64,000 nucleotides of DNA from Patescibacteria group bacterium (lineage in GTDB: Bacteria; Patescibacteriota; Minisyncoccia; Phycocordibacterales; XYD1-FULL-46-19). This document shows, one piece after another, positions 12,163 through 56,552 of the stretch (the first letter of the stretch is position 1; each line of letters starts with the position of its first letter). A program made the position numbers and the translations under genes. The DNA is taken from positions 54,043-118,042 of the forward strand of contig JBMCHT010000001.1 of assembly GCA_048617235.1 (NCBI GenBank). The letters are read 5' to 3'. The notes under the pieces were generated by a model. The model was given only the letters and a program-made list of their open reading frames with translations, was not told the origin of the DNA and did no database searches.

Positions 12163-12459
12163 AATATACAAAATATGGCTTAAAATAAGCATATTTTAGC
12201 TTAGGTTTATCCACAAGAAGACCCTTTACTGTTGACTTTTTAAATTCTCTGTGCTAACATAGACGACGTAGAGCAGAGTAGTCATACCTGCTCTTTTTAA
12301 GTGGAGTAATACATCAGCGCTTTAAAAATTGTTTAACATAATAATTTTTAATCAAGCGTTACGACGCGTATTATAAAAACTTTACAAATAGGCTTAGTTA
12401 GCCTTATAGCTTTTACCGGAATTAATCCGGCAGCTGTCGATGAGAATAAACAATTCAAT

Positions 12460-12879
12460 TTGGTAGCTGTTGAGACTGAACCGGTAGAAAGCCTTGAAGA
12501 TGATCAGTCTTTGAATTCCGATTCAAAGCCGACCGCAGAGTCGGACGCTGAACAACTTCAAGAATTAATCGTTGAATACAGTTTAAAGAATAATATAGAT
12601 CCTAACTTACCACTGGCTATCGCTTTTTGTGAAAGCTCTTACAGGCATTGGCAAGATGAGGATCAAAATAAAGTCCTTAGAGGTCAAACCAATTCCAATG
12701 ATGTTGGTTTATTCCAAATAAATGAACATTATCATTTAGATAAAAGTCGCGAATTAGGCTACGATATATATACCTTAGAAGGTAATATAGAATATGCTAT
12801 GTGGCTTTTAAAAACAGACGGGGATAACGCTTGGCATTGGAGTCAGAAGTGTTGGAGCCCGAAGCTAGCTCAAAAGTAA
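12460..12879 (+). CDS. Lytic transglycosylase (SLT/lysozyme-like domain) protein. True start probably upstream (~12371) with a non-canonical initiator.
   Basis: 'AIAFCESS' (catalytic Glu-Ser) and 'GLFQINEHYH' resemble SLT 'ES...GLMQI'. The open in-frame upstream stretch encodes a signal-peptide-like 'IIKTLQIGLVSLIAFTGINPAAV'. Confidence 0.6.
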   Translation: MVAVETEPVESLEDDQSLNSDSKPTAESDAEQLQELIVEYSLKNNIDPNLPLAIAFCESSYRHWQDEDQNKVLRGQTNSNDVGLFQINEHYHLDKSRELGYDIYTLEGNIEYAMWLLKTDGDNAWHWSQKCWSPKLAQK

Positions 12880-13186
12880 AATGAATTAGAAACAAGAACC
12901 ACTCAGATTAGATTAGACCTGAGTGGTTTTTGTTTGTTTTAATTTATTTGAATGGTTCGCAAAAGATATATTGTGCGAACCACTATTATCTTTATTCTAG
13001 CTATAAAAAACAACCCCCCTATGCATTTTTTAATTAAAATCTAATTTATCAATCAATTAAATTAAAAACTTTTAATAAAATAAAAAACATATTACACCTC
13101 TCCCCATTTAATCTCTTCCTTTCTTTAATATCTTTAATAAACTAATTTTATTGATTTAAATAAAAAATCTATCCACTCCACTCCCC

Positions 13187-13215
13187 TTGCCTAAAATCCA
13201 AATATTAGTCATAAT
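13187..13215 (+). promoter_or_regulatory. Sigma70-like promoter TTGCCT-N17-CATAAT
   Basis: Hexamers at 13187-13192 and 13210-13215 with 17-nt spacer. Drives the GC-rich element that follows. Confidence 0.4.
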
Positions 13216-13216
13216 A

Positions 13217-13500
13217 AAAATGGACTGTGCACCACAACTAAAAGGGAGGGAGGTGATTCTTATCGGCACCCAAACCACCACAAAGATGCCCGTTTTCAAA
13301 ATCTCGGAACACCGAGATGAAAACGGCTTCTTCAGCGTCAAACCGGTAAAGGCAACCCCGGTCGCCCCTACCAAAAACGGCAAAAAAGAGGAACCCGTCA
13401 AGCGGGATCCTCGCAACTAGCCTCACCCCCGGAGAAGCATATGATTATAGTCTCATACGGTGCACCCGAGACAAATCATGTCCTTCTCCGGGGCTTTTTT
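13217..13500 (+). other. GC-rich promoter-to-terminator unit, either a structured RNA or a small-protein mRNA (44-66 aa; ATG 13220, GTG 13253 or ATG 13286, stop 13420). Unclassified.
   Basis: ~55% GC in a ~35% GC background. 'AAAGGGAGGGAGG' purine tract. Long-range pairing GTGCACC/GGTGCAC. Terminal hairpin CCCCGGAGAAG...CTTCTCCGGGG plus T6 at 13427-13500. Confidence 0.35.
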
Positions 13501-13909
13501 ATTGTTGTAAACCGGGACAATTAAGAGCCGGGGTATACCCGGCCGCTTGAGCCTCGGCTTCAGATTGAAACCAAACCAAATTAGGTTCACTAATTTGTTT
13601 GGCTCCGGCACACCAAGGTAAATGGTAACGTTTCCCATTTCTAGAGGCAACCACTACACCGGCGGCTATCGAACCGGTTGGCAAATCAGGATGTTTAGTA
13701 AACATCTCCAAAGGTAGAGTTTCATAAGGGGGTAGAGGCCATTCTTCTACGGTTATAGGTGGTCGATTATCTATCAAATTCTGAATCCGCCCCAGACCAA
13801 AACCGATTACTCCGGTCAAAAAAACTATTAAAATAATAGCTAAATCCTTTTCATATTTAAACCAAGACTGCCTCTTGATTTTTTTCAGCCATTGAGTTAT
13901 ATTTATCAT
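13499..13909 (-). CDS. Membrane-anchored protein with C-terminal Ada-like zinc-binding (YHxxxC...C) domain
   Basis: N-terminal TM 'AIILIVFLTGVIGFGL'. C-terminus 'GKRYHLPWCAGAKQI...VWFQSEAEAQAAGYTPALNCPG' matches the Ada metal-binding-like fold pattern. Confidence 0.5.
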   Translation of the reverse strand: MINITQWLKKIKRQSWFKYEKDLAIILIVFLTGVIGFGLGRIQNLIDNRPPITVEEWPLPPYETLPLEMFTKHPDLPTGSIAAGVVVASRNGKRYHLPWCAGAKQISEPNLVWFQSEAEAQAAGYTPALNCPGLQQ

Positions 13910-13948: not shown

Positions 13949-14230
13949 ATGTCAACTAAAAAAGCCGGTGGATCGGCTAAAAACTTAAGAGATTCAAATC
14001 CTAAATATTTAGGTACTAAACTCTATGATGGCCAAGAAGCTAAGGCCGGATCTGTTATAGTCCGTCAACGAGGAACTAAAATTTTACCGGGAGAAAATGT
14101 CGGCCTGGGTAAAGATCATACAATTTTTTCTAAAATAACCGGTAAAGTGGTTTATAATACTGTTCGTAAAACCAAATTTAACGGTCAAACTAAAAGATAC
14201 AAGAAAGTCAGTGTAAAATCTGAAAAATAA
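13949..14230 (+). CDS. rpmA: 50S ribosomal protein L27
   Basis: '[54 protein letters not shown]' close to the L27 consensus. Confidence 0.9.
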
Positions 14231-26927: not shown

Positions 26928-27002
26928 TTGGTGACCCTACGGGGAATTGAACCCCGGTTTCCACCGTGAGAGGGTGGCGTCCTAGCCGCTAGACGATAGG
27001 GC
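26928..27002 (-). tRNA. tRNA-Glu (anticodon CUC), CCA encoded
   Basis: Cloverleaf: acceptor GGCCCTA/TAGGGTC, D-arm GTCT-AGCGGCTA-GGAC, anticodon stem CCACC/GGTGG with loop CTCTCAC, T-arm CGGGG-TTCAATT-CCCCG, then ACCA. Confidence 0.85.
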
Positions 27003-27051
27003 CATATATTCTGGCCAAAATAATAACACAAGAGTTTAAAAATATAAAGAT

Positions 27052-50392: not shown

Positions 50393-50473
50393 GTTATACC
50401 ATTATAAATGGAGAGAAAGTTATAGGAAGACTTTCTCAAGAAGGAAAGAAAAAGGAAGGAAGGAAGGGAAAAT

Positions 50474-50815
50474 ATGTCCGTAGTAGCCTCACACCCGCCG
50501 GCCGTTGAGCCGGCAAACGATCAAGTGGTACTGGAAGTCTCGGACTTCGCCTCGGGAAACCAGGTTGCCCGAAACCTCAAACTGGGCAACCGGTACGGGC
50601 GTCCGATGACTCAAGACGAGGTTCTGGAACAGAGCCTCGACCTCCTACAGGAGGGCGTCGCCATCCTCTGCCCGGGCCCCGGGCAGAAAAACTGCATCAT
50701 GATCTATACCGACGGTCGCGGCAACATTGTGGCCACGATCATTGAAGAGACGACCAGTTTCCCGGCCGGGGACTTCAAGGTCGCCTACATGGTGGCCGTC
50801 CCCAATAATTTCTAA
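50474..50815 (+). CDS. High-GC (~60%) small protein of unknown function. Likely foreign origin or an unusual constraint.
   Basis: 113-codon ORF after a 60-nt polypurine leader ending 'AAGGAAGGAAGGAAGGGAAAAT-ATG'. GC3-rich codon usage unlike neighbours. Followed by a terminator hairpin. Confidence 0.5.
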   Translation: MSVVASHPPAVEPANDQVVLEVSDFASGNQVARNLKLGNRYGRPMTQDEVLEQSLDLLQEGVAILCPGPGQKNCIMIYTDGRGNIVATIIEETTSFPAGDFKVAYMVAVPNNF

Positions 50816-50833
50816 CCCCCCTTCCCACAACCA

Positions 50834-50867
50834 CCCCGCGCCAAACTTGGTGCGGGGTTCTCTTATA
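50834..50867. terminator. Intrinsic terminator shared by the high-GC ORF (+) and uppP (-)
   Basis: CCCCGCGCC-aaacttg-GGTGCGGGG (9 bp with one G.U), followed by TTCTCTT. Confidence 0.5.
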
Positions 50868-55752: not shown

Positions 55753-55836
55753 AATCTTTATTTTAACATTTTATATTTTTTTAACCAATTAAAAAACCCG
55801 GGGCTATCTCTTTTGCGAAATTACCCCGGGTGTGTT

Positions 55837-56265
55837 TTAGCGAGTCAAAATTTTGTCCACGCAGGGAACAAGGTGAGGCAATTGAAGACAGATTGTATTC
55901 CGCAACTCAAATACCTCACCGGGGGTAGAAGTGTGTTTAAAAGCGCCTTGCAAGCAAAGCTTAATCATCACCTCGGCCAATCCCTGTAGTGACTGACTCT
56001 CAAAAATAAGACTATCAATCAGCTTAATAATCTTTATCAAGTCAGCCGGTTCTTTGGCCTGAAGTCGAGCTTGGCACAAGGCCCTTAAAGCCAAGAGGCC
56101 GTCAATCCGACTGAAGGCCCGGCCAACCTCCAACCACTGCCAACACGCCAGATCCTCAATCAAAAGACCTTGAAAAAAGCGCTGGGCTTTCTCCCTAGTT
56201 TTCGATTGAGAATTTTGATTGACATACTGATTAAAAAGCTTCAGCATCTGATTCAAATCAGCCAT
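55837..56265 (-). CDS. Hypothetical alpha-helical protein (142 aa), second gene of a GC-richer two-gene operon. Start at ATG 56265, not the longer ORF-track call.
   Basis: Strong RBS 'AGAGGAGGA' 6 nt upstream. Start 1 nt after the zinc-ribbon gene's stop. Downstream hairpin plus T6 terminator (~55795-55830). Confidence 0.5.
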   Translation of the reverse strand: MADLNQMLKLFNQYVNQNSQSKTREKAQRFFQGLLIEDLACWQWLEVGRAFSRIDGLLALRALCQARLQAKEPADLIKIIKLIDSLIFESQSLQGLAEVMIKLCLQGAFKHTSTPGEVFELRNTICLQLPHLVPCVDKILTR

Positions 56266-56266
56266 C

Positions 56267-56443
56267 TTAAGTCCTCCTCTTTTTGCCCTCCAAACATTTC
56301 GGACACAAGTACCGACGCTGTCCCCGCTTATCCTTTTTGACAACCAAAGCAAAGGCCTGAACCCTGTTCGACCAGCGACCGGATTGGCCACAAATATCAC
56401 AAACCTGATTGTCCGGCAAAGAATAATAGACAGATACCTTCAT
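56267..56443 (-). CDS. Small zinc-ribbon protein (58 aa, CxxC-N27-CxxC)
   Basis: 'MKVSVYYSLPDNQVCDICGQSGRW...RYLCPKCLEG'. RBS 'AGGAAGAAG' 7 nt before ATG 56443. The ORF-track TTG extension is unlikely. Confidence 0.5.
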   Translation of the reverse strand: MKVSVYYSLPDNQVCDICGQSGRWSNRVQAFALVVKKDKRGQRRYLCPKCLEGKKRRT

Positions 56444-56552
56444 TTTCTTCTTCCTTCTGTTAAAGACCCGAGTTTCTATTACAGCAAACAAGAAAAGTTA
56501 TTAAAAAGCAAGCCCTTGCCTCTTTGGGTAATATCGGGCAAAATATTAAGAT

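Follow-up and report, generated by a model that had tools for sequence, protein, structure and literature searches.

A GC-rich orphan unit beside a dif-like site in a Patescibacteria genome as a candidate mini-gene cassette

The present analysis concerns a 64,000-nucleotide stretch of DNA (referred to below as the window) from an uncultured genome of the Patescibacteria, or Candidate Phyla Radiation (CPR), which carries locus tags of the form ACOCU8_xxxxx and the label 'MAG: Patescibacteria group bacterium' (MAG, metagenome-assembled genome). Positions 13220-13500 of the window form a compact plus-strand unit between two convergent genes, one for a transglycosylase of the SLT type and the other for an Ada-like membrane protein. 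To judge from its sequence, the unit is real, compositionally distinct and lineage-specific, with a good terminator and a plausible promoter candidate. We tentatively interpret it as a small-protein mini-gene cassette, probably of foreign origin, that is confined to this lineage and occupies the variable spacer that separates a dif-like site from the first conserved gene of the right replichore. This interpretation ranks first among those considered here; a small RNA and a non-functional remnant come next, both doubtful and to the same degree.

Composition, signals and reading frame of the unit

The overall GC content of the window is 35.1% (mean 0.351, standard deviation (sd) 0.048), and that of the segment from 13220 to 13498/13500 (~280 nt) is 0.49-0.50. 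The transition is abrupt, with GC rising from ~0.2 to 0.5 exactly at 13220 and staying high through to the terminator. Because the high GC also extends over the unstructured 5' part of the unit, the stems alone do not explain it. The original prediction, made from the sequence of this region, had described a free-standing element between convergent genes, and the composition bears this out. All the motifs that it named, that is, TTGCCT-N17-CATAAT, ATG 13220, the open reading frame (ORF) from ATG 13286, two pairing 7-mers, a terminator and three pyrimidine tracts, are present in the sequence.

Transcription of the proposed cassette would start at ~13222 from an AT-rich sigma-70-like promoter (coordinates of this and the other features are given in Table 1), which is the sole plus-strand promoter candidate in 12700-13870. 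The predicted start site (~13221-13223) coincides with the GC jump. As a match the promoter is plausible, with 9 of 12 positions agreeing; it has no TG extension, and the native promoters here resemble TGnTAnAAT. The frequency of such matches, however, is little above that in shuffled sequences (8 sites in 1.4 kb vs 4.0 +/- 2.1).

The transcript would begin with a 31-nt unstructured leader (the fold of 13216-13290 has z = +0.7) that bears a strong purine tract resembling a Shine-Dalgarno (SD) sequence and runs directly into GTG 13253. The tract followed by GTG was correctly noted in the original prediction, where it was written as AAAGGGAGGGAGG-GTG, a form that counts one G twice. In its longer form, AAAAGGGAGGGAGGTGAT, the tract contains GGAGGTGAT (13249-13257), which is present in a single copy in the window vs 0.33 expected and which we take to be the exact complement of the conserved 16S rRNA 3' tail AUCACCUCC; the 3' end of the host's own 16S rRNA lies outside the window. 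GTG 13253 is the sole canonical start near the purine tract and lies 3 nt past GGGAGG; at 8 nt past GGAGG there is an ATC.

Translation from GTG 13253 would yield a 55-residue basic peptide (net charge ~+5), mostly disordered, that includes ISEHRDENGFFSVKPVK. The alternative in-frame starts, ATG 13220 (66 aa) and ATG 13286 (44 aa), share the same frame, which is open from 13187 to the TAG at 13418-13420; an open frame of this length (77 codons) has P = 0.02-0.05 in shuffles. The 3-base periodicity of 13253-13420 (chi-square 17.3, p = 0.01) is comparable to that of 168-nt fragments of real genes, and the purine-any base-pyrimidine (RNY) codon pattern is best of the six frames in the frame of the ORF (+6.4 bits; position 1 is a purine in 69% of the codons and position 3 is C in 45%). 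The GC contents at the three codon positions of the 44-aa ORF are 0.56/0.38/0.64, similar to the 0.63/0.39/0.75 of an annotated orphan ORF at 50474 and unlike native genes, in which the GC content at third positions (GC3) is 0.21-0.33. Together with the purine-rich leader, which resembles those of the islets described below, the periodicity, RNY frame and ORF length lean weakly towards coding. The frame of the ORF is better supported than its exact start, which is most likely GTG 13253.

Transcription would stop at the long three-part hairpin H-c with its U-run (13427-13500). This terminator, already recognized in the original prediction, comprises a hairpin at 13427-13493 followed by TTTTTT at 13495-13500 and stands out in the fold of 13421-13500 (-36.1 kcal/mol, z = -7.0). 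The U-run overlaps the stop codon of the convergent Ada-like gene, and there is no U-run after H-c on the minus strand. A second GC-rich stem-loop directly followed by a U-run, H-b, is found on the minus strand at 13388-13412, where a terminator scan also reports a terminator-like site (13410..13391, tail CTCTTTTTTG). H-b is likely to be the intrinsic terminator of the Ada-like gene, whose mRNA would then have a ~115-nt 3' untranslated region (UTR) antisense to the end of the plus-strand unit. The simplest reading of H-b and H-c is that of two one-directional terminators placed face to face, with a predicted overlap of ~110 nt between the convergent transcripts, that of the Ada-like gene probably ending at H-b.

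The unit is one of three short GC-rich islets in the window (13220-13500; 50440-50860, with up to 60% GC; and 55820-56460). The second of these is the GC-richest spot of the window, and its orphan ORF of 113 aa (at 50474) has a long purine leader, AAGGAAGGAAAGAAAAAGGAAGGAAGGAAGGGAAAATATG. The other two islets resemble the unit in build, with GC3 of 0.50-0.75, purine-rich SD-like leaders (e.g. GGAAGGAAGGGAAAATATG, AGAGGAGGACTTAAGATG) and GC-hairpin terminators after C-rich runs at their ends. The three islets share neither sequence nor ends. The islet ORFs (113 aa, 142 aa and 58 aa) match no family, and the 113-aa and 142-aa proteins have no close relatives in viral contigs. On these grounds the three islets might represent a class of foreign or fast-evolving mini-cassettes.

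The translation signal of the unit is uncommon in this genome. An SD-like motif within 25 nt upstream of the start was detected in only 3 of the 58 ORFs of at least 120 aa (~55 of them native), one of the three being the 142-aa orphan of the third islet (55837-56265). Of 56 native genes, 21 have a strong -10-like hexamer, often TGnTAnAAT, at 2-15 nt upstream of the ATG, compared with 14% of random positions; the distance from the end of the hexamer to the ATG is 6-8 nt in 12 of these 21 genes and 3-4 nt in none. The 6-8 nt mode is the geometry of leaderless mRNAs and suggests that such mRNAs are widespread in this genome. The anti-SD motif has been detected in only 48% of the 16S genes of Parcubacteria (PMC9297842), and the scarcity of native SD motifs together with the leaderless geometry is consistent with that report.

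Absence from relatives and the terminus setting

The comparison set consisted of 165 loci (L001-L165), of which 45 genome loci were collected via the Ada-like neighbour and 120 metagenome loci via a conserved 22-mer of the dif-like site. The unit is absent from all 165 syntenic loci of related Paceibacteria as judged by blastn, nhmmer, tblastx and a covariance model of 13286-13500, and no second copy was found within the window. Lack of conservation in relatives, which the original prediction had taken in advance to speak against itself, is formally what we observe, in the 165 syntenic loci, in protein databases and in viral and metagenome contigs alike. The flanking proteins of these relatives are mostly 30-60% and at most ~70% identical (28-68% for the Ada-like protein, 40-72% for L27 and lower for the others), and the nearest homologue of the Ada-like protein in a search of 5.8 billion clusters is ~46% identical over most of its length. 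Since all these relatives are distant, the absence of the unit from them cannot separate a young gene from junk; at flanking identities of at most ~70%, it shows the unit to be lineage-specific but does not show it to be junk.

Two candidate matches were rejected. The covariance-model hit in locus L137 (14.5 bits) is located in that genome's Ada-like gene, at the 3' end of its coding sequence, and is due to chance. This hit, along with a by-eye resemblance ('KISE...AP.KN'), raised the possibility that the unit is a decayed duplicate of the 3' end of the Ada-like gene; a profile of 72 Ada-like proteins, which gave ~0 bits in all six frames, speaks against this. Nor did Pfam show a match to an Ada-like or sunset-domain protein. 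An integron cassette does not fit either, as hairpin 13427-13493, read by eye, does not carry the core pair AAC/GTT (RYYYAAC/GTTRRRY) at its ends.

The gene order around the unit is shared by many Paceibacteria, with CtpA-L9-L27-Ada on one side and gltX-M23(-p98) on the other. The SLT gene (plus strand, end at 12879) and the Ada-like gene (minus strand, end at 13499) converge on a 620-nt gap. Their protein accessions are consecutive, and the locus tags run from 00360 (p98) through, presumably, 00365 (SLT) to 00370 (Ada-like); hence NCBI annotates no protein-coding sequence (CDS) or RNA gene in the gap. The distance between the Ada-like gene and the dif-like site ranges from 164 nt to 8 kb among relatives, which identifies the spacer as variable DNA. 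Spacers close to the terminus in two relatives contain hairpins unrelated to the unit, namely a long GC-rich hairpin at 4200-4262 of L008 (AAAAGCCAAAGGGCACCTTC...GAAGGTGCCCTTTGGCTTTT) and tandem GC-rich palindromes with a repeated GCCTGCCCGCCAGTGCTACGC unit at 3430-3525 of L021.

The dif-like site is located ~205 nt from the promoter candidate and ~240 nt from the start of the GC-rich segment, at the maximum of the cumulative GC skew (peak at 10-13 kb with a steady fall after it), where genes converge. It is present in a single copy in the window. Its core GTCGCACAATATATCTT is found exactly, over 15-17 nt, in the distant syntenic loci L006, L008, L018 and L043, and at least 120 metagenome contigs contain the 22-mer without a mismatch. 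The orientation of the site relative to the Ada-like gene is constant in 33 of 34 loci, and in those long enough to show the neighbours, the gltX-M23 and Ada-L27-L9-CtpA blocks recur on its flanks. With its 11-6-11 arms, its single copy at the terminus and its conservation in a conserved context, the site has the properties expected of dif. Of the two arms of proteobacterial dif, that of XerD is the more strongly conserved; here the left arm is conserved and the right arm varies between genomes. The dif site of E. coli is GGTGCGCATAATGTATATTATGTTAAAT (PMC3025954), and the site described here is identical to it at 19 of 28 positions, including 9 of 11 in the left arm. Neither Xer nor FtsK was found in the window when the 747-aa ORF and nine ORFs of 275-325 aa were scanned with Pfam.

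Short G-rich motifs are oriented towards this site. The motif GGGGAG is found in the window on the plus strand to the left of 12950 (5 of 5) and on the minus strand to the right of it (18 of 18), so that all 23 copies point at the dif-like site. When 124 other loci are aligned in direction on the site, no hexamers are more polar than AGGGGA and GGGGAG, 90% of which face it; the numbers of copies in the permissive and non-permissive orientations are 373/42 for GGGGAG, 155/7 for GGGNAGGG and 28/1 for GGGGAGWGG. GGGGAG is enriched about four-fold within 300 nt of the site on the side of the Ada-like gene (61 vs 8). The sequence GGGNAGGG is the E. coli KOPS (FtsK orienting polar sequence) (PMC2680272, PMC3384302). 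As in the XerCD/FtsK system, the G-rich motifs flip strand at the site in the way that KOPS-like polar motifs would, and motifs of the GGGGAG type are candidates for KOPS-like motifs of Parcubacteria.

These motifs also bear on the three pyrimidine tracts that the original prediction had listed upstream of the unit. They are located within an AT-rich spacer (13024-13189, 166 nt) that is depleted of G on the plus strand (2 G vs 32 C). On the minus strand, the two outer tracts are copies of GGGGAGWGG that point at the dif-like site; they are better explained as polar motifs of the FtsK-orienting type next to dif and probably are not part of the unit.

Table 1. Features of the unit and its surroundings (positions in the window)
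Feature	Position	Strand	Description
Promoter candidate, sigma-70-like	13187..13215	+	TTGCCT (13187-13192), 17-nt spacer, CATAAT (13210-13215); AT-rich like host DNA
Predicted 5' leader	13222..13252	+	unstructured; ends in purine tract AAAAGGGAGGGAG (13240-13252), directly followed by GTG 13253
Candidate ORF	13253..13420	+	55 codons from GTG, MILIGTQTTTKMPVFKISEHRDENGFFSVKPVKATPVAPTKNGKKEEPVKRDPRN; stop TAG 13418-13420
GUGCACC	13229..13235	+	complementary to GGUGCAC 13459-13465 in the apical loop of H-c
Hairpin H-a	13288..13329	+	stems CCGUUUUCA/UGAAAACGG and UCUCGG/CCGAGA, 3-nt bulge, loop AACA; begins at the G of ATG 13286
Hairpin H-b	13388..13412	-	GAGGA.CCCG...CGGG.UCCUC, then UUUUUU (13387-13382), UUUUUUGCCGUUUUU
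Hairpin H-c	13427..13500	+	three-part, outer stem CCCCGGAGAAG/CUUCUCCGGGG; hairpin 13427-13493 and U-run 13495-13500
dif-like site	12954-12981	-	28-mer GGTTCGCACAATATATCTTTTGCGAACC; GGTTCGCACAA-TATATC-TTTTGCGAACC, 11-6-11 inverted repeat
Pyrimidine tract	13095..13105	-	GGGGAGAGGTG on the minus strand (CACCTCTCCCC in the original prediction); GGGGAGWGG copy pointing at the dif-like site
Pyrimidine tract	13113..13123	+	CTCTTCCTTTC, inside the G-depleted spacer
Pyrimidine tract	13173..13186	-	GGGGAGTGGAGTGG on the minus strand (CCACTCCACTCCCC in the original prediction); GGGGAGWGG copy pointing at the dif-like site
SLT (transglycosylase) gene	12460-12879	+	MFW5853078
Ada-like gene	13499-13909	-	MFW5853079; membrane protein, weak Ada-Zn-binding match
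rpmA (L27)	at 13949		next after the Ada-like gene
GC-rich islet	50440-50860		orphan ORF 50474-50815, 113 aa, MFW5853120.1; GC3 0.75; fold z -4.8; GC-hairpin terminator
GC-rich islet	55820-56460	-	orphan ORF 55837-56265, 142 aa, MFW5853127.1; uncalled 58-aa CxxC...CxxC ORF from 56443; terminator ~55790-55830

The SLT gene differs from its counterparts in two respects. In relatives it is located between the Ada-like gene and dif, on the strand of the Ada-like gene; here it is on the other side of dif and on the other strand. The similarity of the SLT protein to its relatives also extends 5' of the annotated TTG 12460, to ~12370. There is no in-frame ATG, GTG or TTG in this extension (12163-12879 examined), so the gene may have a non-canonical start or may be truncated.

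Hairpins and competing readings of the unit

A number of observations weigh against a small-protein cassette. The start codon is doubtful, with GTG 13253 only 3 nt past GGGAGG and no canonical start 5-10 nt past GGAGG, and the host may not use SD pairing at all. The two starts offered in the original prediction fare worse. The leaderless start at ATG 13220 is separated from the -10 hexamer solely by AAAA (4 nt), which is too near to fit the spacing of the native starts; the downstream ATG 13286 is not preceded by an SD motif, and its third base is paired within hairpin H-a (13286-13335: -19.8 kcal/mol, z = -5.7). The stretch 13286-13420, with a fold z of -5.5, is very structured for a coding sequence, and the antisense in-phase frame has an RNY score (+5.1 bits) nearly equal to that of the ORF. 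The ORF was called neither by the NCBI annotation nor by another gene caller. The AlphaFold model of the 55-aa peptide, a single beta-hairpin at residues 17-31 (predicted local distance difference test 68, predicted template modelling score 0.22), is uninformative. The peptide (44-66 aa, depending on the start) has no homologue in the search of 5.8 billion protein clusters. A HMMER search of 1.84 billion representative proteins yielded only two hits with E ~1e-4. No matches were obtained for the plus- or minus-strand ORFs of the unit in Pfam, PHROGs, NCBIfam and PADLOC, for the unit in phage and plasmid DNA, or for back-translated peptide patterns in viral and metagenome contigs, and a foreign donor of the unit was not found. 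The two HMMER hits were rejected as chance, being sums of weak matches to internal repeats of unrelated proteins.

The folding of the unit is the basis of the main alternative on the RNA side. The whole unit (286 nt) folds with -103.9 kcal/mol and z = -7.1 on the plus strand and with z = -5.2 on the minus strand, which makes it the third most structured of 127 equal segments across the 64 kb (mean z -0.77, sd 1.48). The structure resides in three hairpins (13288-13329, 13388-13412 and 13427-13493), and the 5' 75 nt are unstructured. The two segments that rank above the unit are its immediate neighbours at 12.2-13.0 kb, and the whole region of the terminus is accordingly hairpin-rich. One of these neighbouring segments (12215-12500, z = -6.2) contains the p98 terminator and a ~300-nt region upstream of SLT; the other (12715-13000, z = -6.7) contains the SLT terminator at 12897-12935 and the dif palindrome.

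A free-standing structured small RNA of ~280 nt appears possible but doubtful. Its single-stranded 5' arm, rich in CA and in purines, would pair with pyrimidine-rich targets or with the 16S tail, the three hairpins and the terminator would provide stability, and the T-poor composition would account for the ORF as a by-product. The strand difference in folding, the rank of the unit among the segments and the unstructured 5' end all agree with such an RNA. The same is true of composition, as the GC-rich block coincides with the predicted transcript, from the start site to the terminator, and is preceded by an AT-rich promoter, a pattern shown by RNA genes when the genome is AT-rich. Owing to the shortage of T on the plus strand, three of the six frames remain open for 62-86 codons, so that an open frame says little by itself; the lack of a protein homologue and of an annotated CDS, as well as the weak start codon, fit a small RNA too. 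Against it, high z values are not specific here, as the annotated GC-rich 113-aa ORF reaches -4.8 and the 5' coding region of SLT reaches -5.3, and neither the periodicity (p = 0.01) nor the RNY phase is expected of a pure RNA gene. The structured RNA considered in the original prediction matched no family: among the 4227 covariance models of Rfam, the only hit at the gathering threshold in the entire 64 kb is tRNA-Glu (26932-27003), and at E <= 10 the unit attracts only snoZ112 (17.6 bits vs a threshold of 40) and mir-342 (14 vs 60). ARAGORN found no tmRNA or tRNA at the unit, and the covariance model of 13286-13500 has no credible match in 1.03 Mb (the window and the 165 related loci). The long-range pairing of GTGCACC with GGTGCAC, also part of the original prediction, is real as far as the two sequences go, the second being located in the apical loop of H-c, but long-range 7-mer pairs are at chance level (2 vs 0.76 expected, P = 0.18; P = 0.024 if that pair is named beforehand).

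A non-functional, decaying foreign remnant in the fast-changing spacer next to dif is as doubtful as the small RNA. In this case the promoter match and the ORF would be either accidental or vestigial, and the only working parts would be the face-to-face terminators that halt convergent transcription before the terminus. Such a remnant is in line with the lack of conservation wherever we searched, with a promoter match at chance level, with the absence of a usable start at the proper SD distance (ATC is found where ATG would be expected, 8 nt past GGAGG) and with a spacer that varies from 164 nt to 8 kb among relatives. The adjoining intergenic DNA of the terminus is equally hairpin-rich, and H-b and H-c are explained as terminators of the minus and plus strands. 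The unit faces replication head-on, and its copies of GGGAG are directed away from dif, contrary to the local polarity, which fits an insertion that ignores the local polarity rule. What speaks for more than a remnant is that open frame, periodicity and RNY phase have all been retained and that H-a and the 5' part are unnecessary for termination. Furthermore, the presence of a plus-strand terminator implies that plus-strand transcription reaches it, although the upstream SLT gene is already provided with a terminator (12897-12935).

A special form of the small RNA, quite improbable in our estimate, would be a new Patescibacteria RNA with a 5' arm that mimics a ribosome-binding site and is capable of 9 Watson-Crick and up to 5 more pairs with the canonical 16S tail, in a host lineage that is largely leaderless. 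Even less credence is due to a function on the minus strand, either as a long structured 3' UTR of the Ada-like gene or as a small ORF (GTG 13426 to 13238, 62 aa): the in-phase frame (+5.1 bits), the U-run after H-b, by which Ada-like transcripts should span 13385-13498, and the fold (z = -5.2) are compatible with it, but the U-run of H-c and the purine-rich leader are both on the plus strand, the length of the minus-strand ORF has P = 0.13-0.19, the ORFs of this strand have neither a start context nor a match to any protein family, and transcripts ending at H-b would miss most of the element. Equally improbable is the remnant of an integrative mobile element exploiting Xer (IMEX), of which the CTX phage and the gonococcal island are examples; the foreign-looking GC-rich DNA does begin ~240 nt from the dif-like site, and such elements are known to integrate next to dif, but there is no second dif-like site in the window even with 9 of 28 mismatches allowed, which makes this origin unlikely, no similarity to phages or plasmids, and two islets of the same style are located 37 and 43 kb from dif.

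Relation to known systems and implications

The mini-gene cassette that we favour would belong with the ORFan small genes of acquired islets. The unit resembles these in its off-host GC content (0.50 vs 0.35), high GC3, lack of homologues, own terminator, location in a variable spacer and a translation signal that is absent from native genes, and two annotated orphan-gene islets of like build are present in the same window. It differs from them in that the ORF comprises only 44-66 codons, has an uncertain start, was missed by gene callers and is unusually hairpin-rich, and in that no donor, integrase, repeat or tRNA border is visible.

The other natural comparison is with SgrS, RNAIII and SR1, which are trans-acting or dual-function bacterial small RNAs with a Rho-independent terminator. 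Like these, the unit is an intergenic segment of 200-500 nt between convergent genes, with a small ORF and with a single-stranded 5' region that is followed by stable hairpins and a terminator. Unlike them, it has no family match, conservation, covariation, known target or chaperone, and its codon periodicity covers most of the transcript instead of a short sub-region. The unit would be an orphan small gene or a small RNA, and both kinds are already known.

Any function that the unit might have would matter little unless it is expressed, as it amounts to a single orphan locus, lacking a conserved partner, in one metagenome-assembled genome. If it is a regulatory RNA, it would add to a group of which, to our knowledge, very few members have been reported in the CPR; a literature search found no report of a regulatory RNA for this radiation. 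An RNA that mimics a ribosome-binding site could, if this is what the unit encodes, act by titrating the 16S tail or 30S subunits or by pairing with targets rich in C/U, and it might double as the mRNA of the 55-aa peptide. If the unit is translated, as an SD-led foreign mini-gene in a leaderless host, it would be relevant to the handling of SD-led foreign genes by CPR ribosomes. Beyond the unit itself, the dif-like site, the polar G-rich motifs and the conserved gene block mark the terminus across many Parcubacteria, and these markers are usable for orienting and checking the assemblies of CPR genomes.

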